From Acidobacteriota bacterium (GTDB lineage: Bacteria; Acidobacteriota; Thermoanaerobaculia; Multivoradales; JAHZIX01), in the NCBI GenBank assembly GCA_039191605.1, contig JBCCXL010000003.1, forward strand, positions 257,543 to 321,542: DNA of 64,000 bases, given 5' to 3'. Numbering within the stretch: the first letter of the stretch is position 1; each line of letters begins with the position of its first letter. Of the stretch, positions 15,203 through 39,534 are shown in pieces. A program made the translations under genes and the position numbers. The notes under the pieces were generated by a model, which saw only the letters and a program-made list of their open reading frames with translations, did not search any database and was not told where the DNA came from.

Positions 15203-15282
15203 AGCGGTTTTCGCCGCGGCTTCGCCGTTGCCCTTGCCGCCTGTAATTCCCTTGTGCGCTCCGCGTACGGTCCGCTGGTGCG

Positions 15283-20814: not shown

Positions 20815-22257
20815 GTGATGAAGCGTGGCTCGAGATCATTGTGGGCTGAGGTGAACGCCGAGCCCACGGTTCGGGTAGCTCAGCTCTGTGGCGAGATTCA
20901 ATCCCTGGTGCGCCAGGGGTTCTCCTCCCTTTGGGTCGCCGGAGAAGTGCAGAGAGTCCAGCGCAGCCAGCGCGGCCATCTCTACTTCGAGCTGGTGGAC
21001 AAAGGGCAGGGGGATCGGGTCACGGCGAAGATCGACGCGGTGATCTGGCGTTCCGATCTCGCGAAGGTGGAGCGAGAGCTGCGCCGCAGTGATCAGAAGC
21101 TGGCGCCGGGCGTGGAGCTGCGATGCCGCGGAGGGGTGGACTTCTGGCCTCCCGGAGGGCGCCTGCAGCTGGTGGTGCGGGAGGTGGACCCGGCTTTCTC
21201 TCTGGGCCAGCTGGAGCTGCGCCGTCGCCAGACCCTGGCGGCGCTGCAAAAAGCCGAGCTGCTGGATCGCAACTCGGCCCTGACGCTGCCCCCGGTGCCC
21301 CTCAGGGTGGGCATGGTGAGCTCCTACGAGAGCGCGGCGTACCACGATTTCCTCTCCTCGCTGCAGTCCATCGCCTACGGTTTCGAGGTCACCTTCGTGC
21401 ACGCTGCGATGCAGGGGGCCGAAGCCGAACGAGAGGTGGTGTCGGCGCTGCGCGCCCTCGCCGGGCTGCCGCTGGACGTGGTGGTGGTGGTGCGGGGCGG
21501 CGGCTCGCGCACCGACCTAGCGGCCTTCGATAGCCGAGCGATTTCAGAAGCCATCGCCCGCTTTCCGCTACCGGTGGTCACCGGCATCGGCCACGAGATC
21601 GATCAGAGCATCGCCGACCGAGTCGCCCATACCGCGGTGAAGACCCCCACCGGGGCGGCGGAGCTGCTCATCGACCGAGTGGCGGGAGCGGATCTCGCCC
21701 TCGAGCAGATACAGCAGCGCCTATTGATCGCCGCTCGGGATCCGTTGAGCCGCGGCAAGGAGCGCCTGCTTCAGGCGGAGCGCGGGATGCGTCGGGCTCA
21801 GCTGCGATTGGCCTCCGTGTCCGCCCGCCTCGAGGAGCATGGGCGACGGCTGGCGCGCCTCGGCGGCGAGAGCCTGAGGCGCGGCGGGAGTGAAGTCCAG
21901 CGAATCGCCCAGCGCCTCGGCGTGGCCTCGCCCCGTTTTCTGGGGCGTCGCCGCGAGCTGCCGGAGACCCTGATGCATCGGGTGGTGATCAGCGCGCGAG
22001 CGAGGCTGGCCCGGGCTCATGCGGAGGTCGATGGCCGAGCTCGGCTGTGTCGTGATCTCGACCCCCAGCGCACCCTAGAACGGGGCTTTTCCATCACCCG
22101 CAGCGTCGACGGACGGCTGCTGCGGGGAGAGGGAGATCTCGCCGTAGGGGATCAGCTAGTGACTCGTTTCGCCGCCGGCAGCTGGATCAGCCGAGTGGAG
22201 GCGGAGCAAGAGGATTTGAACGTCGAACCCCCTGAGCCTACCGTGGAGACGCCATGA
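20815..22257 (+). CDS. xseA: Exodeoxyribonuclease VII large subunit
   Basis: The N-terminal OB-fold region ...VAQLCGEIQSLVRQGFSSLWVAGEVQRVQRSQRGHLYFELVDKG...RVTAKIDAVIWRS... and the catalytic core ...VVVVRGGGSRTDLAAFD...PVVTGIGHEIDQSIAD... are present. Confidence 0.85.
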   Translation: MMKRGSRSLWAEVNAEPTVRVAQLCGEIQSLVRQGFSSLWVAGEVQRVQRSQRGHLYFELVDKGQGDRVTAKIDAVIWRSDLAKVERELRRSDQKLAPGVELRCRGGVDFWPPGGRLQLVVREVDPAFSLGQLELRRRQTLAALQKAELLDRNSALTLPPVPLRVGMVSSYESAAYHDFLSSLQSIAYGFEVTFVHAAMQGAEAEREVVSALRALAGLPLDVVVVVRGGGSRTDLAAFDSRAISEAIARFPLPVVTGIGHEIDQSIADRVAHTAVKTPTGAAELLIDRVAGADLALEQIQQRLLIAARDPLSRGKERLLQAERGMRRAQLRLASVSARLEEHGRRLARLGGESLRRGGSEVQRIAQRLGVASPRFLGRRRELPETLMHRVVISARARLARAHAEVDGRARLCRDLDPQRTLERGFSITRSVDGRLLRGEGDLAVGDQLVTRFAAGSWISRVEAEQEDLNVEPPEPTVETP

Positions 22258-22532
22258 GCACTGATCCGACTACTGGCCCGATCCCTGGCCCCGAGAGCGC
22301 ATCCCCCGTCGAGAGCCAGCTAGAGGGAGAGAAGCTCTCCTTTTCCGATGCCCTCCAGCAGCTGGAGGAGATTCTCGGCCGCATCGAAGACGAGCGCATC
22401 GATATCGACGAGCTGGCGACGGAGCTGCGGCGAGGAGCGGGTCTACTGGATCTTTGCCGGGGCAAGATCCGGCGGGCGGAGCTCGAAGTGACCCAAATCG
22501 TGCAGCGCCTGGAAGACAGCGACGAGGGTTGA
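22254..22532 (+). CDS. xseB: Exodeoxyribonuclease VII small subunit
   Basis: 92 aa, with an ATGA start/stop overlap with xseA. ...LSFSDALQQLEEILGRIEDERIDIDELATELRRGAGLLDLCRGKI... is the typical XseB helical hairpin. Confidence 0.8.
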   Translation: MSTDPTTGPIPGPESASPVESQLEGEKLSFSDALQQLEEILGRIEDERIDIDELATELRRGAGLLDLCRGKIRRAELEVTQIVQRLEDSDEG

Positions 22533-22609: not shown

Positions 22610-23034
22610 GGGTTTGGAACCTGTGGCCGGGGCGCCCCACGGGGACATCTTGCCAACCATCAGCGCGCTGCCCGCTTAGCGGTTCTTATTTTCTTCACGG
22701 TAGCGTCGTGCTATTTTTGACGGTACTCATCTGCTCGCAGAGGGTCGCCTGAAGTTCTAGGGGACCCGCTTTTCAACCGAAGGCCCTGCAATAGGCTCTG
22801 CCGCCAGGAAGCATCGATTCCTCCAGGATCTGGACGGGCTGTTCTCTCTGGCAGCGCGGAGCGCGGCTGGAAGGGGGGCGCGTAAAGTCCGCTGAAACAA
22901 GACTTTCGCCACCAACATAGTGTGAACTAAAGGATCTTCCCTCAGCGAAGAATCCGGTAGTGCTCCCCCCTTCTGAAGACTCTGAAAAAAGAATACCTAA
23001 AGCCCCCGCGGCGGAAAATTTCTCACTACCTACG

Positions 23035-23730
23035 ATGATCCAGGAATTTGTCAACGCTCTGCTCGAGCCGCCAACGGTGCTCTTCACCTCCCTGCTGGTG
23101 GTGGTGGTGGTCTACTGGCTCACGGTGATTCTGGGCATTTTCGATCTGGACCTCTTCGACCTCGATCTCGACCTCGATGTCGGAGTGGACGGGGCGATGG
23201 AGGGGGTGGAAGGTGCGCTGGAGCTCGGCGATGCCCCCGAGATTGGAGATGCTGGCCCGACGGGAGTCGCCGGGCTGCTCACCGCCCTCGGTCTCGCGGG
23301 GGTTCCCCTCACCGTCACGCTTTCCTTCCTCATCGTCTTCTCCTGGTTCCTCACCTATCAGGGCATGCGGGTTCTGCCGCTGCTGGACCTCAGCGGCGGC
23401 TTGATTCGCTGGCTGCTGCTCCCGGTGGTCTCGGTGTTGGTCTCGCTGGGGCTGACGTCGGTGCTGGTTCGCCCGCTGCGGCCGGTGTTTCGCACCGTTC
23501 CGGCGGCCTCGAGGCAGGATTTCTCCGGCCGCTCGGCGACGGTGGTTTCCTCCCACGTCGACCGCGAGCAGGGACGAGCGGAGATCGACGATGGCGGCGC
23601 TGGGTTGCTGGTAGAGGCCCGGCTGGTGTCGGGAGCCCCGGCTCTCCGGGGGGACCAGGTGACGGTGGTGCGCTACGACAACGATCTTGACGTGTTCTTC
23701 ATCACTCGCCGGGACGAGAGCCTGCAATAG
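23035..23730 (+). CDS. YqiJ/NfeD-like inner-membrane protein (multi-TM N-terminal half, C-terminal OB-fold-like domain)
   Basis: The hydrophobic N-terminal half is ...LFTSLLVVVVVYWLTVILGIF... with further TM segments. The acidic (DL)n linker is DLDLFDLDLDLDVGVDG. The C-terminal beta-rich region ...GRAEIDDGGAGLLVEARLVSGAPALRGDQVTVVRYDNDLDVFFITR... is typical of the NfeD C-terminal domain. It is encoded immediately upstream of a flotillin gene, as in E. coli yqiJ-yqiK. The start is chosen at MIQEF (23035). Confidence 0.6.
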   Translation: MIQEFVNALLEPPTVLFTSLLVVVVVYWLTVILGIFDLDLFDLDLDLDVGVDGAMEGVEGALELGDAPEIGDAGPTGVAGLLTALGLAGVPLTVTLSFLIVFSWFLTYQGMRVLPLLDLSGGLIRWLLLPVVSVLVSLGLTSVLVRPLRPVFRTVPAASRQDFSGRSATVVSSHVDREQGRAEIDDGGAGLLVEARLVSGAPALRGDQVTVVRYDNDLDVFFITRRDESLQ

Positions 23731-23835: not shown

Positions 23836-25893
23836 ATGGTCACTCTTGGCATTATCGCCCTCGTGCTCTTCGGCATTTTCGTGCTGCTGGGTCTACTGGT
23901 TCTTGTCGCTCGCTTCTATAAGAAGGTGGAGCAAGGCAAGGCGCTGATCGTTAACAAGATGTCCGCCGAGCCGGAAGTCACCTTCACCGGGGCCGTCGTG
24001 TTGCCGGTGATCCACAAGGCGGAGGTGATGGATATCTCGGTGAAGACCATCGAGATCGATCGCCGCGGTCTCGACGGTCTGATCTGTCAGGACAACATCC
24101 GGGCGGACATCAAAGTCACCTTCTTCGTGCGGGTGAATAAGACCAAGGAAGACGTCATCAAGGTCGCGCAGGCCATCGGCTGTCAGCGAGCTTCAGATCC
24201 GGGGACCCTCGAGGTGCTCTTCAACGCCAAGTTCTCGGAAGCGCTGAAGACCGTCGGTAAGCAGCTCGACTTCGTCGACCTCTACACCAAGCGGGATGAG
24301 TTCCGGGATCAGATCATTCACGTCATCGGGCGTGACCTCAACGGCTACGTGCTGGAGGACGCGGCCATCGACTATCTCGAGCAGACCCCGCTGGAGAAGC
24401 TCGATCGGGACAACATCCTCGATGCCCAGGGCATTCGCAAGATCACCGAGCTGACGGCGATTCAGCACGTCGCCACCAACGATTTCCGCCGCGACGAAGA
24501 GAAGAAGATCAAGAAGCAGGACGTCGAGGCGCGGGAGACGATTCTCGCCCTGGAGCGTCAGCAGGCGGACGCCGAGGCGCGACAGCGCCGCGAGATCGAA
24601 ACCGTGAAGTCGCGGGAGGAAGCGGAGATCCTGCGAGTCGCGGCGGAGGAGCTGCAGAAATCAGAGACCGCTCGCCTGGACTCCCAGGAGCAGGTCGCGG
24701 TGCGCGAAGAGAATATGAAGCGCCAGGTGGAGGTCGCGGCGAAGAATCGCGAGCGGGTGGTGGCCATCGAGCAGGAGCGGGTGTTGAAAGACAGCTCCCT
24801 AGAGGCGATCAGCCGCGAGCGGGAGGTGGAGCTACAGCGCATCGCTAAAGAGAAGGAGCTCGAGAAGGAGCGTAAGGCCATCGCCGACGTGGTGCGGGAG
24901 CGCATCGCGGTGGACAAGACGGTGGCGGAAGAGGAAGAGGGCATCAAGCGCCTGCGGGTGATCGAGGAAGCGCGCCGCACCAAGGAGGCAGCGGTGCTGA
25001 TCGCTGAGGGCGCCGCGGAAGAAGCGCTGGTGAAGGACGTCAAGGCGGCGGAAGCGGCGGAAGCGGCGGCGAAGCACAAGGCTCGCGAGATGCAGGTGCT
25101 CGCCGACTCGGAGCTCGCGGTGGCGGACAAGGAAGCTCAGTCGAAGATTCGACTCGCCGACGGTACCCAGGCTGCCGCGGCCGCCGAGGGCTTGGCCAAG
25201 GTCAAGGTGAAGGAGGCGGACGCCGTCGCTACCGAGAAATACGGTCTAGCGGAGATTCGGGTGAAGGAGGCGGACGCCGCCGCCCTGCGCCAGGTCGGCA
25301 CCGCGGAGGCGGAAGTGGAGCGCGAGAAGGGGCTCGCCACCGCGTCGGCGCTGGAAGCCAAGCTGGAGGCGGAAGCCAAGGGCCTGCGCGAGAAGGCCGA
25401 TGCGATGGCCGCCCTGGATGAGGTCAGCCGCCAGCACGAGGAATATCGACTGCGACTGGAGACCGAGAAGGACATCGAGCTGCGCGCCATCGAGGCTCGC
25501 CGCCAGGTGGCCGAGGCGCAGGCAGAGATGCTCGCCACCGCGCTGTCCTCCGCGAATATCGATATCGTCGGCGGCGAGAGCATCTTTGTCGACCGCCTGA
25601 TGAGCTCGCTGTCCTCGGCCAAGTCCCTGGACGCCTTCATGGACCGCAGCGAGACCGCGAAGCTGGCTCTGAAGGATTACGTGGACGGCGGACGGAGCTT
25701 CGCCGGAGACGTGCGGGAGGTGCTGGCGCAGAGCGATCTCGGCTCCGAGGACCTCAAGAACCTCACCCTCGCGGGGCTCTTGTCCCGCCTTGCCCGAGGC
25801 AAGTCCGGCGAGCAGGCCGAGCGTCTCGGGGAGCTGGCAAAGTTGGTGAACGAGGCGGGACTCGGAAACCTGCGCGCTCGCCTGGACGATTGA
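23836..25893 (+). CDS. Flotillin family protein (SPFH/band-7 domain; YqiK-like) with long Ala/Glu/Lys-rich coiled-coil
   Basis: 685 aa. N-terminal TM, then the SPFH domain ...FYKKVEQGKALIVNKMSAEPEVTFTGAVVLPVIHKAEVMDISVKTIEIDRRGLDGLICQDNIRADIKVTFFVRV.... An extended EA-repeat coiled-coil follows, typical of bacterial flotillins. Confidence 0.85.
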   Translation: MVTLGIIALVLFGIFVLLGLLVLVARFYKKVEQGKALIVNKMSAEPEVTFTGAVVLPVIHKAEVMDISVKTIEIDRRGLDGLICQDNIRADIKVTFFVRVNKTKEDVIKVAQAIGCQRASDPGTLEVLFNAKFSEALKTVGKQLDFVDLYTKRDEFRDQIIHVIGRDLNGYVLEDAAIDYLEQTPLEKLDRDNILDAQGIRKITELTAIQHVATNDFRRDEEKKIKKQDVEARETILALERQQADAEARQRREIETVKSREEAEILRVAAEELQKSETARLDSQEQVAVREENMKRQVEVAAKNRERVVAIEQERVLKDSSLEAISREREVELQRIAKEKELEKERKAIADVVRERIAVDKTVAEEEEGIKRLRVIEEARRTKEAAVLIAEGAAEEALVKDVKAAEAAEAAAKHKAREMQVLADSELAVADKEAQSKIRLADGTQAAAAAEGLAKVKVKEADAVATEKYGLAEIRVKEADAAALRQVGTAEAEVEREKGLATASALEAKLEAEAKGLREKADAMAALDEVSRQHEEYRLRLETEKDIELRAIEARRQVAEAQAEMLATALSSANIDIVGGESIFVDRLMSSLSSAKSLDAFMDRSETAKLALKDYVDGGRSFAGDVREVLAQSDLGSEDLKNLTLAGLLSRLARGKSGEQAERLGELAKLVNEAGLGNLRARLDD

Positions 25894-25951
25894 GGGCTCG
25901 GCTCGATGACGATCCGCGATGCGTTCCTCCTCCGGTGATGAAGGATCGGTC

Positions 25952-28900
25952 ATGACGGACGATCCTAATCTCGCCCGAGACGGTGCTGCCGAGGAGGCTT
26001 CCGCTCAGGGGGCAGCGCCGGGGGATGGTGACGCCGCCCTGGAGCGCGGCACCTACGAGCTGCTTCGAGAGCGGCTTGAAGGGGCCGCGGCGGTGCTGCG
26101 GCAGCAGGCCCAGCAGCTCAACTCGGCTCGCCTCGAGACCTTCGGCTCCAGCGAGCTGACCCTCGCCGGCCAGAGCCGCATCCGCACCGAGCACAATTGC
26201 CGTCCGCGGGATATCGCTACCGTCGGGGAGCGGCTCATCGTCGGATACGAGGTGCATTTCGGCCTGCGGCGGGAGACCTCCGTCGGTCACGTCTTCAGCG
26301 TCCATCGCTTCGGCGCCGAGGAGGGGGCCGATGCGCCCCCTCATCTGGAGCCAGCCCGTCCGGGAGACGATGGATTCCTGCAGGATGAGCGCTTCGCCCG
26401 AGATTTCGAGGAGCTCTTCCGCTACTACAAAGACACCCGCCTGCTGCAGCTGCGCAACGTCGGCGATCGCCTCTTGGGGGTCTTCCAGGTGGGCACCCGC
26501 CTTTCAGACCTCAAGGTGTTTCGCTGGAGTCTGGATCCCGAGGGTGGCGTCAGCTACATCGACAATCGAGGCGAGCGGGACCATACCTTCGCCGCCGCCT
26601 ACGACTTCGAGTGGCAGGAGGTCAGTCGCGACAGCGTCGTGCCGGGCCGTCACCCGCACCTCTCCATCGAGGACGAGCTCTTCGTCGAGACCATCGGTGG
26701 GGATCTCACCATCAAGGTAGAGAACAACACCGAAGACGGGCTGGGGATCTATCAAGAGCCGGTCATCGACCCCGATCAGAGCCTGGATGACGCCGAGCTT
26801 CGCTACGCTCGGGTGGGATCATTGATCCTGCTCTCGGTGCTGCCCTATCGCGAGCCCCAGGCGCGCTATTTCGTCTACAACACCCGCAACCGCACGGTGC
26901 ACCGTATCGACGCCATCGGCCAATCCTGCCGGCAGCTGCCGGAGGACCACGGCCTGATCTTCCCCGGCGGCTACTACCTGACGGCGACGGATTCTCCCAA
27001 GACCTTCGATCTGCGCCTCGACGGCCTGGAGCTGAAGACTTCGGTGCGCTCCCCCAACGGGGAGGACGTGCTCTACATCTTCCACCAGCGCTCCGAGGGC
27101 CGCAGCGTGCTGCTGCCCTACAACCTGATCCGCAAGGCGGTGGCGACGCCCATCGAATGCTTCGGCTTCACTATTTTCGACGACGGTACGCTGGTGGTCT
27201 TCCGGGCGATCTCCGATGAGCCGTCGCGGGTGCATCCGCTGCAAATCTGGCGTACGCCCTTTGCCAAGGCCGAATTCTTCGAATCTCCCAGCGATGGCTC
27301 TCCGCTGCAGCGATTGGGCAACGCGGAGCTGGTGCGAGGGATCTCCGACGCGCTGTCCCTCGCCCAGCGGGTGATGGAGCAGGAGCCCTCGCGGCGGGTG
27401 TACGAAGATCTCATCGCCGCCGCCCGGCGGATGGAAGACGCCTACCACTGGCTGGGGGACGAAGCCTACGGTGGCCTCGGAGAGGCGGTCGCCGAGCTGG
27501 TGGTGCTGGCGGAGCAGGTGGTCGATGAATTTGAGAAGGTGGAGGCGCTGCGGGCGCGGGCTCACGACGAGGTCAACACCGCTGAGGCGGAGCTCGACGA
27601 GCTGCTGTCGGGCCTCGCGCCGAGCTCCATCGATCGGGTGGAGCCCTTTCTCGAGGCCCTCGCTCAGCTGCGCCGGGCCCGCGGGCATCTGATCACGCTG
27701 CGGGATCTGCGCTACGCTGACCTCGACCGCCTGGAGGCCCTAGAGCAGCGAGCTCAGGGGGCCTTCGACGAGGTCAGCGAGCACGCGGTGGCCTTCTTCG
27801 CCGAGCCGAAAGCCCTGGAGCCCTTCCGCCGTACCCTGGGAGAGCTGGAGAGCTCGGTGGAGGCGGTGAGCTCGCTACGGGAGATCGATCCGCTGGCCCA
27901 GCGGGTGGACGAGCAGGCCCAGGGGCTGGAGCTGCTGGCCCAGGTGACCTCCGGGCTAGAGAGCGACGACGCCACCGTGCGCACCCGCATCCTGGAAGGG
28001 GTGAGCGAGGTGCTGGGGCAGCTGAACCGGGTGCGGGCCATCGTAGACGCTCGTCGCCGCGAGGTCGGAGCGCGGGAGGCGCGGGCGGAATTCGGCGTGC
28101 AGTTCCAGCTTCTCGGCCAGTCCGCCGCCGGGGCTCTGGCGGTGGCGAGCACCCCCGAAGCCTGTGATGAACAGCTGGCCAAGGTGCTGCTGCAGCTGGA
28201 GGACCTGGAGGCGCGCTTCGGCGCCTACGACGACTTCCTGGAGCAGATCACCACCAAGCGCGACGATCTCTACGAGGCCTTCGCCAGCCGCAAGCAGCGA
28301 CTCCTGGACGAGCGTCAGCGGCGGGTGGAGCACCTCTTCGGCGCCGCCCAGCGGGTGCTGGAGGGTATGGAGCGAAGGGCCGAGAGCTTCGACGACGACG
28401 ACGACCTCAACGCCTTCTTCGCCTCCGACCCCCTCGCCGAGCGGCTGCGACGCCTCGGCGGTCAGCTTCGAGAGCTGGGGGCAGGAGTGCGGGCCGACGA
28501 GCTGGAGAGCCGGGTCAAGAGCGCGCGGCAGCAGGCCCGTCGGGGAATGCGGGATCGCCGCGACCTCTTTACCGCCGAGGGGGATCTCATCACCTTCGGC
28601 GCCCATCGCTTCACCGTCAACCAACAGGCTCTAGAGCCAACTCTGGTACCCCGCGGTGACGACCTGGTGCTGCATCTCACCAGCACGGAGTATTACGAGG
28701 CCCTCGAGGACGAGCGGGTACAGGCCGCCCATCAGCTTTGGGAGCAGAGCCTGCCCTCGGAGAGCGAGGAGGTTTACCGCGGGGAGTTCCTGGCCTATTC
28801 CGTGTGGGCGGATTCCTCGCTGCCGGATGATCAGCGCCCGTCTGGATTCCCCTCTCGCCGCGAGCTGGAGTCGGCCGTCGCCGAGGGGGTCGAGGGGCTC

Positions 28901-31654
28901 ACCGCAATCCTGCAGCCGCTGGCGGCTCAGCGCTATGAGGAGGGCTACGAGCGGGGGCTCCACGACGTCGACGGTGCGCGCATTCTCGAGAGTCTGCTAC
29001 AGCTCGACGCGACCGCCGGCCTGCTGCGATTCGAGCCCCAGCCGCGGGCTCTGGCGGCCCTCTTCTGGGCCGGAGCGGAGGAAGATGATCGCGGTCACCG
29101 GGAGCTTCGTCGGGAGATCCGGGATCGAGCCCAGGCGCTGCATCGATTGCGCTCCACCTATGGCGGGGGCCAGGCCGTCGAGGGCTTTCTGGCGGAGCTC
29201 AGCCAGGCGCTGAGGGCGTTTTGTGCCGAACAAGAGCTGCTGTGGGGGGCGGATGAGTCAGCGAATCTGGAGGATGCACCGCCGGAGATTCCGTCAGGGC
29301 ACCCGTCGGGGGCATCGGGAGTACCAGGGGCGCTGCTGCAGGAAGCCGCCGCCTACCTTTTCGAGGTTCTCGCCGTCTCGCCGCAGCGTTTCCCCATGGA
29401 GTCGGCGGCGCAGGAGTTGGTCGAAGCGGCGGAGCCCCGACTGAAGCGGGCCGGGGCCCTCGAGGATCTGCGCCGCGGTCCGCTGGGGCGCCGAGTACAG
29501 ATCGCCGAGGCCTGGCTCTCGGGGGTGGCTCGGGAGCTGGAGGCTGAAGCACCGGAGCGCCAGGGGGGAATCCACCTCGCCTTAGCGCCCGCTACCGCCC
29601 TGCTGCTGGCGGCGGATCGCTTTGACGTGGAGATCAGCCACGGCGCCCTCAGCGCCCGGGTGGAAGGGCTGCTCGGCCGCCACGGACGGATCGAGGAGCG
29701 CACCCTCGCCCTGCGCCTGGACCGCTTTCTCTCTCGCCTGCGAGAGTTTCGCCAGCAGCGGGTTCCGGCCTTCCAGCGCTGGCAGCGGGTGCGTCACGAG
29801 GTGCTGGAAGAGCAGCGCCGCCGTCTGCGCCTCGACTCCATGACCCCGAAGGTGATGAGCGCCTTCGTGCGCAATCAGCTGGTGGATCAGGTTTACCTTC
29901 CCCTGGTGGGAGCAAACCTGGCGAAGCAGATGGGCTCCGCCGGAGCGCAGCGGCGCACCGACCAAATGGGCCTGCTGCTGCTGCTCTCGCCTCCGGGCTA
30001 CGGTAAGACCACCCTGATGGAATACGTCGCCCATCGCCTGGGGCTGGCTTTCCTCAAGATCGACGGGCCCGCCTTGGGCCATGACGTGCATTCTCTGGAT
30101 CCAGCCCAGGCGCCTTCCGCCACCGCCCGGCGAGAGGTGGAGAAGATCAATCTCGCCTTCGAGATGGGCAACAACGTGCTGCTCTACCTGGACGACATCC
30201 AGCACACCCATCCTGAGCTGCTGCAGAAGTTCATCTCCCTCTGCGACGCCCAGCGGCGTATCGAGGGCGTCTTTCGCGGCGAGCCTCGCAGCTACGACCT
30301 ACGGGGTAAGCGCTTCGCGGTGGTGATGGCGGGCAACCCCTACACCGAATCCGGCGAGACCTTCCGCATTCCGGACATGCTGTCCAACCGCGCCGACGTC
30401 TACAACCTGGGCGACGTGCTGAACGGTAAGGAAGATCTCTTCGCCCTGAGCTACCTCGAGAACGCCCTCACCTCCAACGCGACCTTGAGCCCCTTGGCGA
30501 GCCGAGACTTGGCGGATGTCGGGCTCTACGTGCGCTTGGCGAAGGGGGAAACGGTGCCTCCGGATCGCTTCGCCCATGCGGTCACCGGCGCCGAGCGGGC
30601 TGACCTGCTGGCGGTATTGCGTCATCTGCTTCGGGTACAGAGTGTGTTGATGGCGGTCAACCAGGCCTATATTCGATCCGCCGCCCAGGTGGATGCCTAC
30701 CGCTCCGAGCCGCCCTTCCTGCTGCAGGGTAGCTATCGCAACATGAATAAGGTTGCGGAGCGGGTGGTGCCGGTGATGAACGAGGCGGAGCTCGAGGCGT
30801 TGATCGATGATCATTACCTCGGCGAGGCCCAGACTCTCACCACCGGAGCGGAGCACAATCTCTTGAAGCTCGCTTTCTTGCGGGGGCGTGAGACGGAGGA
30901 GCAAAAAGAGCGCTGGGATGCCATCTGCCGTGCCTATGCGCGAGTTCAGGCCAGCGGCGGAGATGCCGACCCGGCGTCGCGGGTGGTAGGGCAGCTGAGC
31001 CTGCTGACAGAGGGGGTCGCCCAGGTCGGCCAGACCTTGGCGTCGGCGGCACAGGGGGAGACAGCTCCCTCCGAGACGTCCTCCCCCTGGACCCCGGAGC
31101 TGGTGCGGAGCGCGGCGACGGAGCTCTCCGCCCACTGGTCTCAGCAGCTGTCCCGCCATTTAGGAGCGCAACTCGGTGAGCACCTCGGGGATCCCCTGGG
31201 GGAGCGGCTGGCGCCGGTGCTGAATCGCCTTTCGGAGCAGCTGGAGCAGGACCGCTCCCCCACCCCCGTGCCGCCTCCGCTACCGGCGGCGGCAAGAATC
31301 GATAGTGAAGCCTTGGCCTCCGCGCTGCGGGGACCCATCGAAGAGCTGGGGGCGCAATTCGCCGAAGTGGCCAAAGCTCTGAGCGAATCTTCTCGTCCCG
31401 CTGTCGTACAATCCCTATCCGGTAGTGTGCGCAATCTGTTGGATGATTTGGTGCGCACGGTGGAGGATTCTTTGCTCCCGGCGGTCAGGCGCCTCAATCG
31501 CCGGGTCGAGGATGCCGAGGATGCTGAGGGAAGACATCTCTCCTCTCAGATCGACCGAGCGCTTACCGATCTCGATCGCTTGAAGGATTTTGCTGCTACT
31601 CTTCGATCGTTGGATGCTTCTTCTTCGAAGCCTCCACAAGCAGACCTCAGCTAG
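25952..31654 (+). CDS. Giant (~1,900 aa) AAA+ ATPase of the bacterial 'DNA repair ATPase'/DUF3686-like family
   Basis: A single uninterrupted ORF. Walker A is LLLLSPPGYGKTTLMEY (GYGKTT at 29996-30013). Walker B-like is NVLLYLDDIQHT. Sensor-like is VVMAGNPYTESGETFRIPDMLSNRADVYN. The beta-rich N-terminal ~500 aa are followed by a long helical middle region. The start is chosen at MTDDPN (25952; GAAGGA ribosome-binding site). An alternative ATG lies at 25919. Confidence 0.75.
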   Translation: MTDDPNLARDGAAEEASAQGAAPGDGDAALERGTYELLRERLEGAAAVLRQQAQQLNSARLETFGSSELTLAGQSRIRTEHNCRPRDIATVGERLIVGYEVHFGLRRETSVGHVFSVHRFGAEEGADAPPHLEPARPGDDGFLQDERFARDFEELFRYYKDTRLLQLRNVGDRLLGVFQVGTRLSDLKVFRWSLDPEGGVSYIDNRGERDHTFAAAYDFEWQEVSRDSVVPGRHPHLSIEDELFVETIGGDLTIKVENNTEDGLGIYQEPVIDPDQSLDDAELRYARVGSLILLSVLPYREPQARYFVYNTRNRTVHRIDAIGQSCRQLPEDHGLIFPGGYYLTATDSPKTFDLRLDGLELKTSVRSPNGEDVLYIFHQRSEGRSVLLPYNLIRKAVATPIECFGFTIFDDGTLVVFRAISDEPSRVHPLQIWRTPFAKAEFFESPSDGSPLQRLGNAELVRGISDALSLAQRVMEQEPSRRVYEDLIAAARRMEDAYHWLGDEAYGGLGEAVAELVVLAEQVVDEFEKVEALRARAHDEVNTAEAELDELLSGLAPSSIDRVEPFLEALAQLRRARGHLITLRDLRYADLDRLEALEQRAQGAFDEVSEHAVAFFAEPKALEPFRRTLGELESSVEAVSSLREIDPLAQRVDEQAQGLELLAQVTSGLESDDATVRTRILEGVSEVLGQLNRVRAIVDARRREVGAREARAEFGVQFQLLGQSAAGALAVASTPEACDEQLAKVLLQLEDLEARFGAYDDFLEQITTKRDDLYEAFASRKQRLLDERQRRVEHLFGAAQRVLEGMERRAESFDDDDDLNAFFASDPLAERLRRLGGQLRELGAGVRADELESRVKSARQQARRGMRDRRDLFTAEGDLITFGAHRFTVNQQALEPTLVPRGDDLVLHLTSTEYYEALEDERVQAAHQLWEQSLPSESEEVYRGEFLAYSVWADSSLPDDQRPSGFPSRRELESAVAEGVEGLTAILQPLAAQRYEEGYERGLHDVDGARILESLLQLDATAGLLRFEPQPRALAALFWAGAEEDDRGHRELRREIRDRAQALHRLRSTYGGGQAVEGFLAELSQALRAFCAEQELLWGADESANLEDAPPEIPSGHPSGASGVPGALLQEAAAYLFEVLAVSPQRFPMESAAQELVEAAEPRLKRAGALEDLRRGPLGRRVQIAEAWLSGVARELEAEAPERQGGIHLALAPATALLLAADRFDVEISHGALSARVEGLLGRHGRIEERTLALRLDRFLSRLREFRQQRVPAFQRWQRVRHEVLEEQRRRLRLDSMTPKVMSAFVRNQLVDQVYLPLVGANLAKQMGSAGAQRRTDQMGLLLLLSPPGYGKTTLMEYVAHRLGLAFLKIDGPALGHDVHSLDPAQAPSATARREVEKINLAFEMGNNVLLYLDDIQHTHPELLQKFISLCDAQRRIEGVFRGEPRSYDLRGKRFAVVMAGNPYTESGETFRIPDMLSNRADVYNLGDVLNGKEDLFALSYLENALTSNATLSPLASRDLADVGLYVRLAKGETVPPDRFAHAVTGAERADLLAVLRHLLRVQSVLMAVNQAYIRSAAQVDAYRSEPPFLLQGSYRNMNKVAERVVPVMNEAELEALIDDHYLGEAQTLTTGAEHNLLKLAFLRGRETEEQKERWDAICRAYARVQASGGDADPASRVVGQLSLLTEGVAQVGQTLASAAQGETAPSETSSPWTPELVRSAATELSAHWSQQLSRHLGAQLGEHLGDPLGERLAPVLNRLSEQLEQDRSPTPVPPPLPAAARIDSEALASALRGPIEELGAQFAEVAKALSESSRPAVVQSLSGSVRNLLDDLVRTVEDSLLPAVRRLNRRVEDAEDAEGRHLSSQIDRALTDLDRLKDFAATLRSLDASSSKPPQADLS

Positions 31655-31751: not shown

Positions 31752-33689
31752 GTGAATGAACCTCTGCCTCCTTATCTGCGATCCGCGCTGTTCGTAGATT
31801 TCGACAACATCTACATCCGATTACGCGAAGAAAGTGAAGAGGCCGCCGAGCATTTCGCTTCGGAGCCCCACCGTTGGCTCCGCTGGCTCGAAGAAGAGGC
31901 GCCGATGGTGGATGACCGCTTCCTCGATACCAAGGATCTGCCCCGGCGGATTCTGCTTCGCCGCTGCTATCTCAACCCCCGATCCTTCCATCAGAGCCGC
32001 CCTGCCTTTGTTCGGGCTGGCTTCGAGGTGGTGGACTGTCCGCCGCTGACTCACGGTGGCAAGACCAGCAGCGATATCCGCATGGTGATGGACATGATGG
32101 ATGCTCTATCCCACCCCAGCACCCGCTTCGACGAGATGATTCTCTTCTCCGGGGATGCGGACTTCACGCCGATCTTCACTCGCTTGCGGGCCAATGATCG
32201 CTTTACCGTGGCTCTGATCGTCGGCCAGGCCTCTTCCGCCTACCGCTCCGCCTGCGATCTCCTGCTCAGCGCCGACGAATTTGTCGAATCGGGGCTGGGG
32301 GTCTCCGGTGAAGCCCTGGAGGCTCGCCGAGAGGCTCCAACCCGCCTGCGCCCCCTGCTGGAAGGGATGCACGGCACCGTCGCCGATGCGGTGGCCAGCA
32401 CCGGGCCGGTGCCGGCGGATCGGCTGCCGATGATTTACAAGGAGTTCTCGGAGTTCCGCGAGGGTTCCGACTGGCTGGGCTTCATGAGTCTGCGGGGGCT
32501 TACGGAGGCCGTCGTTGAGGCCGGTAGCGGTCTCGTGCTGCGGGAAGAAGACCCCTGGGTCGTCGACTACGGACAGACCCCGGTGGTGAATCGTGGCGAG
32601 TCGGCGGTGCCTGCATCTGGCCCCAGCCCCAGCCCGAGCTCGGGCCCCAGCCTGGGCCCCGGTCCGTCCGCTCCTCCGCCTACCGGTTGGCGCAGCGATT
32701 TCGGCGAGCGCGCCGCGGCGGTGGTGCGGGCAGCGGTGGTCGAGTCCGACGAGCCGCTGAGCCTCGCGGGTCTCTCCCATCGCCTGATGCGCGAGCTGGG
32801 GGAAGGGGTGCGCTCCCGCGCCTGGCAGGGCGCCGGCTCTTTCCGCGCCTTCCTCGAGGGGCTAGACCTCGAAGGCCTGGAGATCTCCCGGGTCACGCCG
32901 GGCTACGTGTATGACCCGGTGCGCCATGACCCGCCGGCGGAGGCCCGCGACGGGGACGAATTCGCCCGCCGCTACCCGGAGCTTTCGGAGCTCGCCCGGC
33001 GCATTCATGACGCCACCGACGCGCCCTACCTGATGCCTGACGTGTACGCGGTGATGATGCGGGTCATCGCCGAGGAGATCAACGAGCGGGGCTACCACCT
33101 GGTGCGGACCTCCAAGGCGGTGCGCGACATCTGCAACGGCAAGGGTGTTCCGGTGGCCCGCTCCCACGTTTCTTTCGTCCTCAAGGGCATCCAATACTCG
33201 GGTTATTCCTATCGCCAGGGTCAGGAGAGCGCCCAGGAGCTGGGCCGAGCCTTCGTCCAGAACCTGCTCTTCCTCTGCGATCGTGCCGAGCTCTCTTTGT
33301 CAGATGACGAGAGCGACGCCGTGCGCCGCTGGATCCTCGCTCCCATCGACTACTCCCCAGGAGCCTCCGCCTCGCCGAGCCCTCCCGCTACGAGCTCCCG
33401 CCCGTCGACCTCCTCCGATGAGAGTTGGGAAGAAGACGACGAGTACGAGGACTACGACGAAGAGGACGATTGGGACGGCGAGGACGAGGAAGGTGACGAA
33501 CCCGACGCCGATCCCGACGCCGAAGCCTCCGACGAGGACGAGGACGAGGAGGACTTCGACGACGAGGAAGACGACGAAGAAGACGACGAAGAAGACGAGG
33601 ATGAGGGCGACGAGGACGACGACGAAGACGAGGATGAGGACGACGACGAAGACGACGATGACGAAGAAGAGGACGACAAGGACGATTGA
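31752..33689 (+). CDS. NYN-domain (LabA-like PIN-fold) protein with OST-HTH/LOTUS-like repeats and ~90-aa polyacidic C-terminal tail
   Basis: The NYN signature is ALFVDFDNIYI...SSDIRMVMDMMDALSHPSTRFDEMILFSGDADFTPIF...FTVALIV. The middle and C-terminal segments (…LPMIYKEFSEFREGSDWLGFMSLRGLTEAV… and …LSLAGLSHRLMRELGEGVRSRAWQGAGSFRAFLEG…) resemble OST-HTH modules. The tail is an uninterrupted D/E run. The GTG start at 31752 sits 6 nt after AAGGAG. The ORF track's TTG at 31710 is less likely. Confidence 0.75.
   Translation: MNEPLPPYLRSALFVDFDNIYIRLREESEEAAEHFASEPHRWLRWLEEEAPMVDDRFLDTKDLPRRILLRRCYLNPRSFHQSRPAFVRAGFEVVDCPPLTHGGKTSSDIRMVMDMMDALSHPSTRFDEMILFSGDADFTPIFTRLRANDRFTVALIVGQASSAYRSACDLLLSADEFVESGLGVSGEALEARREAPTRLRPLLEGMHGTVADAVASTGPVPADRLPMIYKEFSEFREGSDWLGFMSLRGLTEAVVEAGSGLVLREEDPWVVDYGQTPVVNRGESAVPASGPSPSPSSGPSLGPGPSAPPPTGWRSDFGERAAAVVRAAVVESDEPLSLAGLSHRLMRELGEGVRSRAWQGAGSFRAFLEGLDLEGLEISRVTPGYVYDPVRHDPPAEARDGDEFARRYPELSELARRIHDATDAPYLMPDVYAVMMRVIAEEINERGYHLVRTSKAVRDICNGKGVPVARSHVSFVLKGIQYSGYSYRQGQESAQELGRAFVQNLLFLCDRAELSLSDDESDAVRRWILAPIDYSPGASASPSPPATSSRPSTSSDESWEEDDEYEDYDEEDDWDGEDEEGDEPDADPDAEASDEDEDEEDFDDEEDDEEDDEEDEDEGDEDDDEDEDEDDDEDDDDEEEDDKDD
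33420..33686 (+). repeat. Low-complexity GA[CGA]-codon run encoding the D/E-rich tail of the NYN protein
   Basis: ...DEEDDWDGEDEEGDEPDADPDAEASDEDEDEEDFDDEEDDEEDDEEDEDEGDEDDDEDEDEDDDEDDDDEEEDDKDD. Confidence 0.9.
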
Positions 33690-34424: not shown

Positions 34425-34826
34425 ATGCGCTACCTAGTTTTGATCGGAGTCACCCTGTGGCTGTTGGTCCTGGTGACTCCCGCAGTGCTTGCAGTCCCTG
34501 TTGGTGAGAGCGACTCGCCCAACTCGCCATCGGAGAGCTGGGCGGGTCAATCGGTGGCGGAAAGCCCTTCGATCTCCACTCCTTCCGAGTCGGTCTTCCT
34601 TCCCGGCGCGAGCGCTGGTGGGGCGGGTCGACAAGGAGATCTCGAGCCGCAGGAGTATCGTGTCTGCGGCGCATCCTGCACCAAGATCACCGGGCTATGC
34701 GCCTGTGCTTTCGATCCGCTGGATTGCTGTGATGGCAAGGCTTGCGCGGCCTTCAATCTCTGCGAGTTCACGGGAGCACAGAAAGCACCGCAGAGAACGA
34801 ATTCCAGCAGTCAGTCCAGCGACTGA
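34425..34826 (+). CDS. Small secreted cysteine-rich protein (133-aa precursor; 9 Cys within ~35 aa)
   Basis: GAAGGAG ribosome-binding site. The signal peptide is MRYLVLIGVTLWLLVLVTPAVLA. After a Ser/Pro-rich region comes the Cys cluster CGASCTKITGLCACAFDPLDCCDGKACAAFNLCEF. Confidence 0.5.
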   Translation: MRYLVLIGVTLWLLVLVTPAVLAVPVGESDSPNSPSESWAGQSVAESPSISTPSESVFLPGASAGGAGRQGDLEPQEYRVCGASCTKITGLCACAFDPLDCCDGKACAAFNLCEFTGAQKAPQRTNSSSQSSD

Positions 34827-34849
34827 GCTGGAGCCTTCATTGGAATCTC

Positions 34850-37285
34850 ATGGACTGGCGCTGGCTCATTTCCTTGGCGGCTCTCCTCGTGTTGGGCGCC
34901 GGCGAGGCGAAGGCGGAGCAATCCTTCCGATTCCTGCTGGTGCCGGAAGCGCATTGGGCTTCAGGGCAGCCTGATGTCAGCGCGGCCCTAGATACAGGGC
35001 AGGTCTATCTGTATCGAGCGGGCGCCTATCGCCCTGAGTTTGTGGCATCGGCCGGAGAGAGCATTTCTCTTCCTGCTGGCGTGTGGCATTGGGTGGCGGA
35101 GTCCGAAGGGTGGGTGAGTGTCGCTTCCGGCCGGCTGGAGATTCCGCTGGGTCGGGTGGGAGCTGAACAGACGCTGATTTGGCCGGTAGTGCCGGCATGC
35201 CGCCTGGAATTAGGATCCATCGCCGGGTGGCAGGGGGTGGAGCGAGTGGACGCGCTGAGCCTCGACCGGTCCACCGTTCATCCCGTGGCGCCGCTGGACC
35301 GGCTAGAAGTCAACGTCCCGGCGGGCCGCTATCTGGTAACCGTCTACGGTGGTCGCGGGCTCGAAGCGATATCGGCCATCGCTCGGTGTCGGGCTGGGGA
35401 GGCTGTCCGGCTCACGAGACCGGAGGTTCCGACGGACACGGTAGATCTCCTGGTGCACGGGCACTGGCCCGGAGGCGCGGAACCGTCGAGGGATACGGAG
35501 GACGACGCTCTCGTCCTCGGCGTTCATGAGCGAGGCTCCGGCCGCCTGGTGCGCCTCGCCGAGGTCGACTTGCGGGTGGGAAGTCGCTCCTCCTTCGTCG
35601 TTCGGAATCTGCCGATGGATCAGGATCTCGAGCTTCGCTGGTCTCACCCAAGTCTGCGCAGCGGCAGCCGGGAGATACCCTCTGACCGCTCCGGGGCCCG
35701 CGAGATGGAAGAGATCCTCTGGCGCCCGCGGGCTGCCGTGGAGGTGCCGGTGGAGTATCTACCGCTCCAGGAGCATGAGGAAGCTCGGCTGTGGATTTCC
35801 CGCTGCGGCGACGGGGCGGTCCAGGACTTCTTGGAAGTGGACTTCGCTGAGTGTCGCGATGTGACGCAAACTCAGCCTCTGAACCAGGGTTTGGGGCGCT
35901 ATCGCTTCGAGGGTCTCGACCTTGGTTGGCACGTAGTGATGGCTCAGGTGGACGACGATTGGATTCCCGGTCTCGGTGAGGCCGTTGCGCTGCAGGTTCT
36001 CGACGCAACGCCGAACCTCGTTGAGCTGGAACCTGCTGCCCTAGAAGAGCTGCGAATTGAGGGCCGCATCTTGTTGGACGGCGAGGCGACCGTCGGCGAG
36101 GTCCGTCTACTGCCTCAGGCGACGCTTCCCGGGACGCCGAGGATCTTCGCCACCGCGGAAGATCTGCGCTACCAGATGACCTTCTTTGCCGAGACTCCCA
36201 CTCGTTTCTACCGCTCTCGCCTGCCCGAAACGCTGCGGGGGCGTTCTGACGCCGAGCTTCGGGGTCTCTTCGTTCGCTACCGGCTGCTCGTCTGTCCAGA
36301 GGTCAATGACGCTGAGGCGGACGAAATCCATCTTGGCGGGTGCCATGCCATTCACCCTCGCTCTACTTTCTCCGGTGGCGGAACGATGGATCTCGAGCTC
36401 TCTGGCCGCTCTCTGCGGGTGGAGCTGGTCGACGACAGCAGCGGCGAGCCCATCGATGGTCGAGGGACTCGAGCTGGGGTGGTCGCTCGCCCCCGAGCTG
36501 GAGCGGCCTACGACACGCTGCATTTCTTTCATGGCGAGATCTATCGTCGTGAGGCTGCTTCCTTCGAAGCAGCGCCGGTTGCTGTCGATGGCGAGGGCAT
36601 CGCTCTTCTTCATGGCGTGAGCGAGGGAGAGATCGTTGTCGTGGCGGTCGCCGATGGCTACCGGCGGGCGGAGCTTTCCGTGGCCGCTGATGTGCACGAG
36701 GCGAGTCTGCGTCTCGAGCGAGACCCCGAATCGGGGCCGGCGGCGATCACATTGGAGCTTCCCTCAGCTTCTGGCGGCCTAGGCGGAGCTCGCGAACCCG
36801 CCGCCGGCGCCTACTTGGTGGCCGCCGGCGCCCTGGGATCCCTACCTAGATGTCACCAGCGCTCCGACCGAGGGGGCCGAGTGAACTGGCCCGGCAGCTG
36901 CCCAACTCAGGGCCTGCGCCGGGCTCTGGTCTTCCATCCTCGTGTTCCGGTACAGGCCGTACGTCTCGTCTTCTTGCCGCCGGACCGCCGAGTGCCGCTC
37001 GTTGCGGGCCCCGCCCGCCCGGTGGAGCTGTGGACTCGCGATCTCAGCGGCCTACCAGCGCCACGGGAACCGGTGGATTGGCGTATCGACGGCATCCTGC
37101 TCAATGCTGATACTGCCTTGCGGGCCCTCAGTGCTAGTGGATCAACGCTTCCCTTTCGCACCGATGCGCAGGGGCGTCTCGATTTTCTGGCGACGGCTGG
37201 AGCCAAGGTCGAGGCCCGTCCTCGGCAGGGAGATGAATGGACTTCGTGGATTCCCGGAGAGCCTCTGGATTTGATCATCCCCTAG
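34850..37285 (+). CDS. Large secreted protein of unknown function (~811 aa)
   Basis: Long ORF with the signal peptide MDWRWLISLAALLVLGAGEAKA. No recognisable catalytic motifs. The start is chosen at the internal Met at 34850, which avoids overlap with the upstream Cys-rich gene. Confidence 0.5.
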   Translation: MDWRWLISLAALLVLGAGEAKAEQSFRFLLVPEAHWASGQPDVSAALDTGQVYLYRAGAYRPEFVASAGESISLPAGVWHWVAESEGWVSVASGRLEIPLGRVGAEQTLIWPVVPACRLELGSIAGWQGVERVDALSLDRSTVHPVAPLDRLEVNVPAGRYLVTVYGGRGLEAISAIARCRAGEAVRLTRPEVPTDTVDLLVHGHWPGGAEPSRDTEDDALVLGVHERGSGRLVRLAEVDLRVGSRSSFVVRNLPMDQDLELRWSHPSLRSGSREIPSDRSGAREMEEILWRPRAAVEVPVEYLPLQEHEEARLWISRCGDGAVQDFLEVDFAECRDVTQTQPLNQGLGRYRFEGLDLGWHVVMAQVDDDWIPGLGEAVALQVLDATPNLVELEPAALEELRIEGRILLDGEATVGEVRLLPQATLPGTPRIFATAEDLRYQMTFFAETPTRFYRSRLPETLRGRSDAELRGLFVRYRLLVCPEVNDAEADEIHLGGCHAIHPRSTFSGGGTMDLELSGRSLRVELVDDSSGEPIDGRGTRAGVVARPRAGAAYDTLHFFHGEIYRREAASFEAAPVAVDGEGIALLHGVSEGEIVVVAVADGYRRAELSVAADVHEASLRLERDPESGPAAITLELPSASGGLGGAREPAAGAYLVAAGALGSLPRCHQRSDRGGRVNWPGSCPTQGLRRALVFHPRVPVQAVRLVFLPPDRRVPLVAGPARPVELWTRDLSGLPAPREPVDWRIDGILLNADTALRALSASGSTLPFRTDAQGRLDFLATAGAKVEARPRQGDEWTSWIPGEPLDLIIP

Positions 37286-37317: not shown

Positions 37318-37362
37318 CTTTGTCGTCTTGGGCTTTGTCGTCTTGAGCTTTGTATCTTCAGG
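37318..37362. repeat. ~15-bp tandem direct repeat (ctttgtcgtcttgRg x2 plus a partial copy)
   Basis: Read directly. It lies upstream of the exonuclease III gene. Confidence 0.7.
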
Positions 37363-37412
37363 AGGGTCTTGGGGAGCCTACCCGAGGCCAGAATCCGATA
37401 TCCTCCGGCGCG

Positions 37413-39454: not shown

Positions 39455-39534
39455 CGGACTCTCTCCTCTCGAAATGAATTCCAGCGGGCTGGTTATCCAC
39501 TCGTTCGTGATGGCCACGGAGGCCGGGAATCAAA

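Follow-up and report, generated by a model that had tools for sequence, protein, structure and literature searches.

The gene at positions 25952..31654 (+) of a 64,000-nucleotide stretch of an Acidobacteriota genome (contig JBCCXL010000003.1; the whole stretch is called the window) encodes a 1,900-amino-acid (aa) ATPase with DUF3686, DUF7902 and AAA+ domains. It is the last of three genes on the same strand, following one for an NfeD-like membrane protein (23035-23730) and one for a flotillin (23836-25893), and the same order is found in related loci. The domain architecture, the intact set of catalytic motifs, the near-obligatory operon linkage and the presence of accessory genes are established by the analysis described here. 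We lean, with confidence a little above even, towards the view that the ATPase is the energy-consuming third subunit of an NfeD-flotillin-ATPase membrane module, remodelling the flotillin assembly or handling its clients; our confidence in any specific substrate is lower. A previous reading of this DNA from its letters and open reading frames (ORFs), referred to below as the sequence-only reading, had described the ATPase gene and did not include the three-gene operon.

A scan that took one genome per species found relatives of the ATPase in at least 566 species, of which the best 80 loci were analysed. These loci span Myxococcota, Actinomycetota, Gamma- and Betaproteobacteria, Acidobacteriota and one metagenome-assembled genome (MAG) labelled as Clostridia. 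A flotillin gene was present upstream on the same strand in all 78 of the 80 loci for which upstream sequence was available. The gap between the flotillin and ATPase genes was less than about 650 nt in 76 of these 78, with a median of 61 nt and some genes overlapping, and the two loci with a larger gap have insertions between the genes. An NfeD-like gene was also found upstream in 68 of the 80 loci. The two most divergent members examined, which share 32-33% identity in the propeller domain described below, have a Band_7 gene and a gene of ~205 aa upstream. When all flanking ORFs of the 80 loci were clustered, no other universal neighbour of the ATPase gene was detected.

By profile comparison, the products of the two upstream genes are homologues of E. 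coli YqiJ and YqiK, encoded in the order nfeD then flotillin. The first gene (23035..23730 (+)) encodes a multi-pass membrane protein of the YqiJ/YuaF (NfeD2-like) type whose C-terminal domain is soluble; the longest form of the ORF begins at GTG 22960, and the conserved Met corresponds to ATG 23035. A profile of 30 orthologues matched E. coli YqiJ with an hhalign probability of 93.5% (E 2e-7). The second gene (23836..25893 (+)), with an AAGGA Shine-Dalgarno site 4 nt ahead of ATG 23836, encodes a YqiK-type flotillin (SPFH/Band-7) of 685 aa, comprising an N-terminal transmembrane (TM) helix, an SPFH domain, a long Ala/Glu-rich coiled coil and a C-terminal region with an IDIVGG motif. The sequence-only reading had called this gene a flotillin, and a profile of 26 orthologues indeed matched E. 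coli YqiK with an hhalign probability of 99.9% (E 5.8e-34, 412 columns); PF01145 (Band_7) is also precomputed on flotillin orthologues in distant loci. Searches of Pfam, NCBIfam and the PDB with the two window proteins themselves gave no match, and their identities were established only by the comparison of orthologue profiles with YqiK and YqiJ.

The reading frame of the ATPase runs through 25919..31654 (+) without an internal stop, giving 1,911 codons from ATG 25919 or 1,900 from ATG 25952, with the stop codon at 31652-31654. Competing ORFs over this stretch reach at most 289 aa on either strand, in DNA of 65-69% G+C, so the length of the frame is beyond chance. More than 100 homologues of 1,750-1,940 aa align over 87-99% of the ATPase at 47-57% identity, and there is no frameshift. 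Thus the frame, which the sequence-only reading had judged unlikely to be spurious, is a genuine single gene with colinear homologues. The NCBI protein P0001, named 'DNA repair ATPase' and derived from an Acidobacteriota MAG, is 1,900 aa long and 100% identical to the window ATPase. Apart from this record, the nearest relative is 55% identical by BLASTP, and 57% identical in the alignment of 35 homologues (A1, 48-57% identical to the window protein) that was used together with a wider alignment of 98 sequences.

The ATG at 25952 is the favoured start codon of the ATPase and gives the 1,900-aa form; the alternative, ATG 25919, would add 11 residues. The sequence-only reading had left the start ambiguous with a preference for 25952, noting that ATG 25919 lies 26 nt past the flotillin stop (25891-25893) and that GAAGGA precedes ATG 25952. 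Both observations were correct. The Shine-Dalgarno-like GAAGGA (25940..25945 (+)) ends 6 nt before ATG 25952, no such motif precedes ATG 25919, and comparable motifs (GAAAGGA and AAAGGAG) stand ahead of ATG 23836 of the flotillin gene and of GTG 31752, the likely start of the next gene downstream. The NCBI annotation of the identical protein starts at the position equal to ATG 25952. The leader ahead of the first conserved block (ERGTYE) varies from 2 to 34 aa across 35 family members including the window protein, in which it measures 30 aa from ATG 25952 and 41 aa from ATG 25919. A start at 25952 also leaves a gap of 58 nt after the flotillin gene, near the family median. The ribosome-binding motif, the NCBI annotation, the leader length and the intergenic distance therefore favour ATG 25952.

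The AAA+ module occupies residues about 1291-1680, counted from ATG 25952 (29822..30991 (+)), at a distance from the N-terminus as the sequence-only reading had described. It is recognised by Pfam, Foldseek and hhalign and comprises an alpha/beta core with a predicted pre-sensor-1 beta-hairpin, a lid and a conserved post-lid helical part. The GYGKTT P-loop of the earlier reading (29996-30013) lies inside the Walker A motif SPPGYGKTT (K1352; 29987..30013 (+)), and its Walker B-like LLYLDD (D1414 and D1415; 30179..30196 (+)) is found 63 residues past the Walker A lysine, with Asp-Asp instead of the usual Asp-Glu. Walker A was invariant in both the 35 and the 98 sequences, and Walker B was likewise invariant in the 98. 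The P-loop had been regarded as the only clear catalytic signature, which proved too narrow, as candidates for sensor 1, the arginine finger and sensor 2 are also invariant. The sensor 1 candidate is N1462 in MAGNPY (30335..30337 (+)), which aligns with the 'tsN' of ClpB-D2 and in the model closes the strand that follows the predicted beta-hairpin. R1480 in IPDMLxNRAD (30389..30391 (+)), the arginine-finger candidate, pairs in the alignment with the arginine in LLDRME of E. coli Lon, the arginine finger of that enzyme. R1596, the sensor-2 candidate, lies in the lid within LQGSYRNM (30722..30745 (+)), the signature peptide by which family members were found; Q-G-S-Y-R-N is invariant, and the role of R1596 is suggested by its position and the GxxR pattern. 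The roles of all three residues are inferred. Taken together, the motifs and the predicted fold indicate that the AAA+ module is complete and probably active.

Comparison with known AAA+ proteins placed the predicted module nearest the HCLR group, though divergent. Foldseek searches with the AAA+ model returned RuvB (E 3e-4), Skd3/ClpB and NorQ/CbbQ, with a probability of 1.00 for RuvB, NorQ and Skd3. Against E. coli proteins, hhalign gave probabilities of 95.8% for RuvB (44 columns), 92% for ClpB-D2 (143 columns), 91% for ClpX, 90% for FtsH and 86% for Lon, and of 17% for RavA and 6% for DnaA. Matches in PDB sequence searches with the ATPase were confined to the P-loop. A GPAL motif after strand 2 and DDIQH of the ATPase resemble GPxL and DEIH of RuvB. 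The HCLR modules of RuvB, ClpB-D2/Skd3, ClpX and Lon provide the best profile and fold matches, and a beta-hairpin before sensor 1 is predicted in the window ATPase, but the Foldseek E-values are weak (1e-3 to 1e-4), and the window ATPase differs in its Asp-Asp Walker B and in lacking an aromatic pore loop: the segment aligned with the GYVG pore loop of ClpB-D2 is the conserved SLDPAEAPNATARQE, without an aromatic residue.

The N-terminal part of the protein matches PF12458 (DUF3686) with 636.3 bits (cut-off 25; E 2.8e-191) over profile positions 2-448 of 448, in agreement with the family assignment made in the sequence-only reading. DUF7902 (PF25472) matched with 89.4 bits (cut-off 26), Pfam AAA with 29.4 bits (cut-off 21.2) and AAA_5 with 28.2 bits (cut-off 22), and the order DUF3686-DUF7902-AAA is that of the family. 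The window protein has all three domains of this family, annotated as 'DNA repair ATPase', and is colinear with it over 97-99% at 47-57% identity. Nothing essential is different in it; it carries a lineage-specific low-complexity insertion of ~25-30 residues (29237-29341), missing in 88% of homologues.

Structure was predicted in two AlphaFold models on 98-sequence alignments, m3e9e9d10b9d7 (N-terminal) and m2f6b7904feb1, with mean pLDDT of 87 and 82, respectively. A disordered leader (residues 1-31) precedes a long helix at residues 34-64 (26051..26143 (+); m3e9e9d10b9d7, pLDDT 81-96), which corresponds to the N-terminal coiled coil described for this ATPase architecture (PMC11237479). Residues 70-434 (26159..27253 (+)), the core of DUF3686 (envelope 26096-27448), are predicted to form a beta-propeller of about 25 strands in ~6-7 blades, with pLDDT of about 90. 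In a Foldseek search with the N-terminal model, the propellers matched were those of WD40, clathrin terminal domain, prolyl-oligopeptidase and YncE proteins (E from 5e-6 to 1e-3). The sequence-only reading had described this region as beta-rich, quoting the peptide FRWSLDPEGGVSYIDNRGERDHTFAAAYDFEW, which is present in the translation, and had raised the idea of a propeller; the AlphaFold and Foldseek results support it. Conservation per block is 0.7-0.83 in the propeller and 0.87-0.91 in the ATPase core, and the polar residues H236, E257, D280, R318, D320, N369-D372, R426 and H428 are invariant. This near-core conservation, together with the many invariant polar residues, suggests a specific binding or catalytic site in the propeller. 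Among 1.84 billion representatives the propeller turned up only at the N-terminus of this architecture, in 671 clusters at 50% identity whose full-length proteins are 1,590-2,036 aa long.

About 850 mostly helical residues separate the propeller from the AAA+ module in the models. A long-helix region at residues 440-860 (27269..28531 (+)), which includes DUF7902 (27809-28063), was assigned by DSSP on the model (pLDDT 85-97), and its longest helices extend to 58 residues. It is followed by a middle region, residues 861-1290 (28532..29821 (+); model m2f6b7904feb1), in which a small beta domain (about 879-917) precedes helical domains and the homologue alignments contain an invariant motif, EGYERGxHDxD, at residues 997-1007 (28940-28972 (+)). 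The sequence-only reading had proposed helical repeats upstream of the core: the helical character holds for about residues 440-1340, but no internal repeats were detectable by BLAST or profile-profile comparison. A 'protocoatomer-like' arrangement of propeller and alpha-solenoid, suggested by matches to clathrin and IFT-A, was considered and judged weak, since the rmsd was 24-35 Å and the helices are very long and not solenoid-like.

The C-terminal tail, residues 1681-1900 (30992..31651 (+)), is a variable Ala/Leu/Ser-rich region, helical in the model. Conservation falls to 0.26-0.51, with 30-40% gaps in homologues, and pLDDT is 40-68, rising to about 80 close to the end; the family profile gave a weak match to designed coiled coils in this region. 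The sequence-only reading had assigned ~400 residues to a C-terminal region after the core. A variable tail does exist, but it comprises ~220 residues, the remainder being the conserved AAA+ lid and post-lid part. No protease domain was found in the window ATPase by Pfam, and no TM segment was seen on reading the sequence by eye, no TM predictor being used. Some myxobacterial members carry a PilZ domain appended to the C-terminus (P0118 of Chondromyces crocatus, residues 1832-1900, and P0115; E 4e-6, above the gathering score), which suggests that these ATPases may be under cyclic di-GMP (c-di-GMP) control.

The operon is extended in Gammaproteobacteria. In 10-11 gammaproteobacterial loci, genes for DUF2170/YjfI and PspA/IM30 (PF04012, E 5e-48) lie upstream in the same orientation. 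In seven gammaproteobacterial loci (L041, at 15205-15771, L042, L054, L061, L063, L064 and L069) the ATPase stop codon is abutted or overlapped by the start of a gene for a small rhomboid-family protease (PF01694, E 1.7e-18), often with a PLD/HKD gene after it, and PLD/HKD hydrolase genes are present in six. No homologue of PspA, YjfI, PLD or the operon-type rhomboid was matched by tblastn anywhere in the 64-kb window, where the operon has an abbreviated form without the PspA dyad or PLD. A membrane-protein ORF at 44396-45301 (+) of the window resembles rhomboids only below the cut-off (E 8.6e-4; 20 bits, cut-off 22.6) and has C-terminal GNGRE repeats; at 12.7 kb from the operon it is probably unrelated to it.

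An operon of this kind has been described in PMC11237479 (mSystems 2024, preprint 2020), with CesT/Tir-PspA, a YqiJ/YuaF three-TM protein and sometimes PLD, and abbreviated operons without PspA are reported there to be widespread. In its three core genes and in the architecture of its ATPase the published operon agrees with that of the window, the identity being inferred from the description; the gammaproteobacterial loci reproduce the full form including PLD, whereas the window is without the CesT/Tir (YjfI)-PspA dyad and PLD. The main text of PMC11237479 says nothing of the rhomboid gene found after the ATPase in seven loci. Its authors independently proposed that the operon acts in sub-membrane assembly and dynamics and in assembling membrane-linked complexes. 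Searches of the literature for DUF3686, PF12458, or 'DNA repair ATPase' together with flotillin found no paper.

Because the universal gene partners, NfeD and flotillin, are membrane proteins, a role of the ATPase at the membrane is favoured over one in DNA repair, and PspA, YjfI, rhomboid and PLD support this reading in that their products are membrane-stress or membrane-acting proteins. Physical interaction, ring assembly, a substrate and a physiological role would enter as follows. Flotillin and its NfeD partner would assemble at the inner membrane, on its cytoplasmic side, as an SPFH cage or clamp, and the soluble ATPase would assemble into a ring through its AAA+ module, the invariance of the arginine-finger candidate implying an oligomeric active site. 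The ATPase would dock on the cage, and hydrolysis would be transmitted via the long helical region to the conserved beta-propeller. The resulting movement would remodel, open or disassemble the flotillin assembly, or would extract or release membrane-protein clients, within envelope stress and membrane protein homeostasis. FloA-NfeD of S. aureus is an ATP-independent holdase for unfolded proteins (PMC11222466), which leaves room for an ATP-dependent partner.

There are precedents for such a pairing. In m-AAA/prohibitin and p97/erlin an SPFH scaffold is paired with an AAA+ machine at the membrane. According to PMC13220708, FtsH works with the SPFH cage HflK/C, and as in the window module an SPFH scaffold and an AAA+ ATPase come together at the membrane, the association in the present case being one of genes. 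The window ATPase differs from FtsH in having no protease domain detected by Pfam and in carrying a propeller and about 850 helical residues ahead of the AAA+ module, and the window flotillin is of the YqiK rather than the HflK/C type. More tentatively, and with less than even odds in our view, the ATPase may be the first example of an AAA+ class dedicated to YqiK-type flotillin cages. Such an enzyme would be the soluble bacterial equivalent of p97 at erlin or of FtsH in HflK/C. It would open cages, or release or extract membrane-protein clients, by means of the propeller and a long helical lever where other machines use an aromatic pore loop, together with rhomboid, PLD and PspA in some lineages and under c-di-GMP control in some myxobacteria.

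Several points weigh against an ATP-driven partner of flotillin. A classical polypeptide-threading mechanism is doubtful for the window ATPase because its conserved segment has no aromatic residue where unfoldases carry one, and with the Asp-Asp of Walker B hydrolysis could be slow and switch-like. By sequence, the P-loop region comes closest to RuvB, which is a DNA motor. Linked genes are no proof that their products interact physically, and no experimental work on any family member was found in the literature. Nor did a robust fusion of the ATPase to flotillin or to NfeD turn up; P0188 (the NfeD1b protease domain, NfeD1b_N, with DUF3686) and P0225 (flotillin C-terminus with DUF3686) were considered as Rosetta-stone fusions and rejected on account of long Arg/Pro/Gly-rich stretches resembling high-GC DNA translated out of frame, and are probably gene-calling or assembly (frameshift) artefacts. 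Finally, flotillin operons can work without such an ATPase, as in E. coli (from its locus) and B. subtilis (PMC2636767). The yqiJ-yqiK genes of E. coli and yuaF-floT of B. subtilis have the same order as the window genes and encode homologous proteins (PMC2636767 for NfeD-SPFH operons), and that survey of SPFH proteins describes NfeD-SPFH operons and mentions no ATPase. In E. coli, unlike the window, no ATPase gene follows yqiK. To our knowledge, yuaF-floT of B. subtilis has no third ATPase gene. The window flotillin has 685 aa, about 130 more than the 553 aa of YqiK, and the last third of its sequence does not align significantly with YqiK.

The extended loci could instead be taken to mean that the ATPase is a Vps4-like disassembly or remodelling enzyme for PspA/IM30 (ESCRT-III-type) polymers, for which flotillin and NfeD would be only a recruiting platform. 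PspA/IM30 and YjfI/DUF2170 do lie directly upstream of the operon in those loci, and PMC11237479 counts the operon as a partner of PspA and likens other pairs of PspA and AAA+ proteins to ESCRT-III and Vps4. PspA is near only about 11 of the 80 loci and is absent from the 64 kb of the window, however, whereas the flotillin linkage is universal; the ATPase has no MIT-like domain, and its AAA+ core resembles the HCLR clade and not the classical Vps4 clade. We consider this explanation improbable. A membrane-associated anti-phage or conflict system, in which the propeller would sense an invader signal and the ATPase would trigger a membrane or nuclease effector (PLD or NYN), seems to us less probable again. 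Defence systems often include giant NTPases that have repeat sensors, the family is patchily distributed across phyla with non-syntenic flanks, PLD/HKD genes occur in some loci, and NYN-domain genes occur after the ATPase in the window and between the flotillin and ATPase genes in Lampropedia (locus L073), there beside a putative nucleotidyltransferase/HEPN-like pair. Set against this, PADLOC gave only a marginal IetA match over the AAA region (E 4.8e-4, 17.6 bits) and none for the partners, the NYN association is seen in two of 81 loci, and the conserved partners are housekeeping-type SPFH/NfeD proteins. The ATPase is strongly and evenly conserved and shows none of the hypervariability expected of a sensor, and the window neighbourhood is ordinary chromosome.

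Two further explanations take the AAA+ core as their starting point. A MoxR-type chaperone, maturing a specific membrane complex or inserting a cofactor or subunit into it, would fit the AAA_5 match above the gathering score, the best target-normalised TM-scores, which were to the MoxR proteins NorQ and CbbQ (0.48-0.54), the NPxxExG...P..L..R motif, which in our own reading resembles MoxR, and the naming of one homologue as 'MoxR-like ATPase'. The hhalign probability for RavA was 17%, compared with 86-96% for HCLR-clade proteins, and no VWA-domain partner gene is present among the conserved neighbours, and we hold this to be very unlikely. The lowest probability falls to a DNA repair ATPase acting on DNA like RuvB. 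The family goes by 'DNA repair ATPase' at NCBI and by 'ATPase involved in DNA repair' in Pfam, RuvB is the best sequence and Foldseek match of the AAA+ core, and in the window the operon is closely preceded by xseA/xseB (exonuclease VII; 20815-22532 (+)) and followed, 5.7 kb downstream, by an exonuclease III-like gene (37350-38285 (+)). But the RuvB match spans only about 45 residues around the P-loop, and the two NCBIfam RuvB equivalogs, whose cut-offs are 282 and 299 bits, gave 22.7 and 21.5, more than 250 bits short. Pfam and profile searches detected no DNA-binding domain, the universal partners are membrane proteins, and no paper supporting the name was found. The repair context was rejected as not conserved: xseA/xseB are near the ATPase gene in one of the 80 loci, and there is no conserved repair neighbour.

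The surroundings of the operon in the window are ordinary chromosome (xseAB, NDH-2, a symporter), and the non-conserved neighbours include an NYN-domain protein and DUF427. Terminator-like hairpins with T-tracts (22666-22710 (+)) lie in the ~500-nt gap between xseB and the NfeD-like gene, and would fit a three-gene operon that is transcribed separately; a promoter scan found no promoter-like sites, and terminator-like sites were no commoner than in shuffled sequences. Directly after the ATPase, a 645-659-aa protein (GTG 31752-33689 (+); longest ORF from TTG 31710) has an N-terminal NYN (LabA-like) nuclease domain (E 6e-19) and an acidic C-terminal part of ~100 residues, of which the last ~50 are nearly all Asp or Glu; PADLOC gave a marginal NYN match for this gene. 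The NYN-domain gene at L073 (7584-9122) is a different one, flanked by a 363-aa ORF; the two small ORFs flanking it were read by eye as the nucleotidyltransferase/HEPN-like pair. Present in only two of 81 loci, an NYN-domain gene was rejected as a fourth member of the operon, and its linkage is probably coincidence. Further downstream, an 847-aa ORF (34742-37285 (+)) has no Pfam, NCBIfam or PADLOC match and no homologue in the 80 related loci. Two adjacent paralogues of 404 and 384 aa (38303-39517 (-) and 39535-40689 (-)), without a Pfam match, share motifs such as QLFRRLRGQ, GPGSQNWPRVAR and FTIRRTTEGTQSW.

The window gene is one orthologue of a catalogued, experimentally uncharacterised family whose operon context has already been published, and for the window itself the result is modest. 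Its interest is that the family is uncharacterised, widely mis-named and tightly tied to flotillin. Beyond the ~45-residue P-loop resemblance to RuvB, the label 'DNA repair ATPase' is unsupported by the evidence found; it has been widely propagated and is unfit for functional inference. The function of bacterial flotillins is debated, and the best-studied of them, FloA, FloT and YqiK, have no enzymatic partner in their operons. A large family (at least 566 species and 671 clusters at 50% identity), flotillin-adjacent in every case examined and with its motif set intact, would offer a concrete handle on whether flotillin assemblies are actively remodelled.

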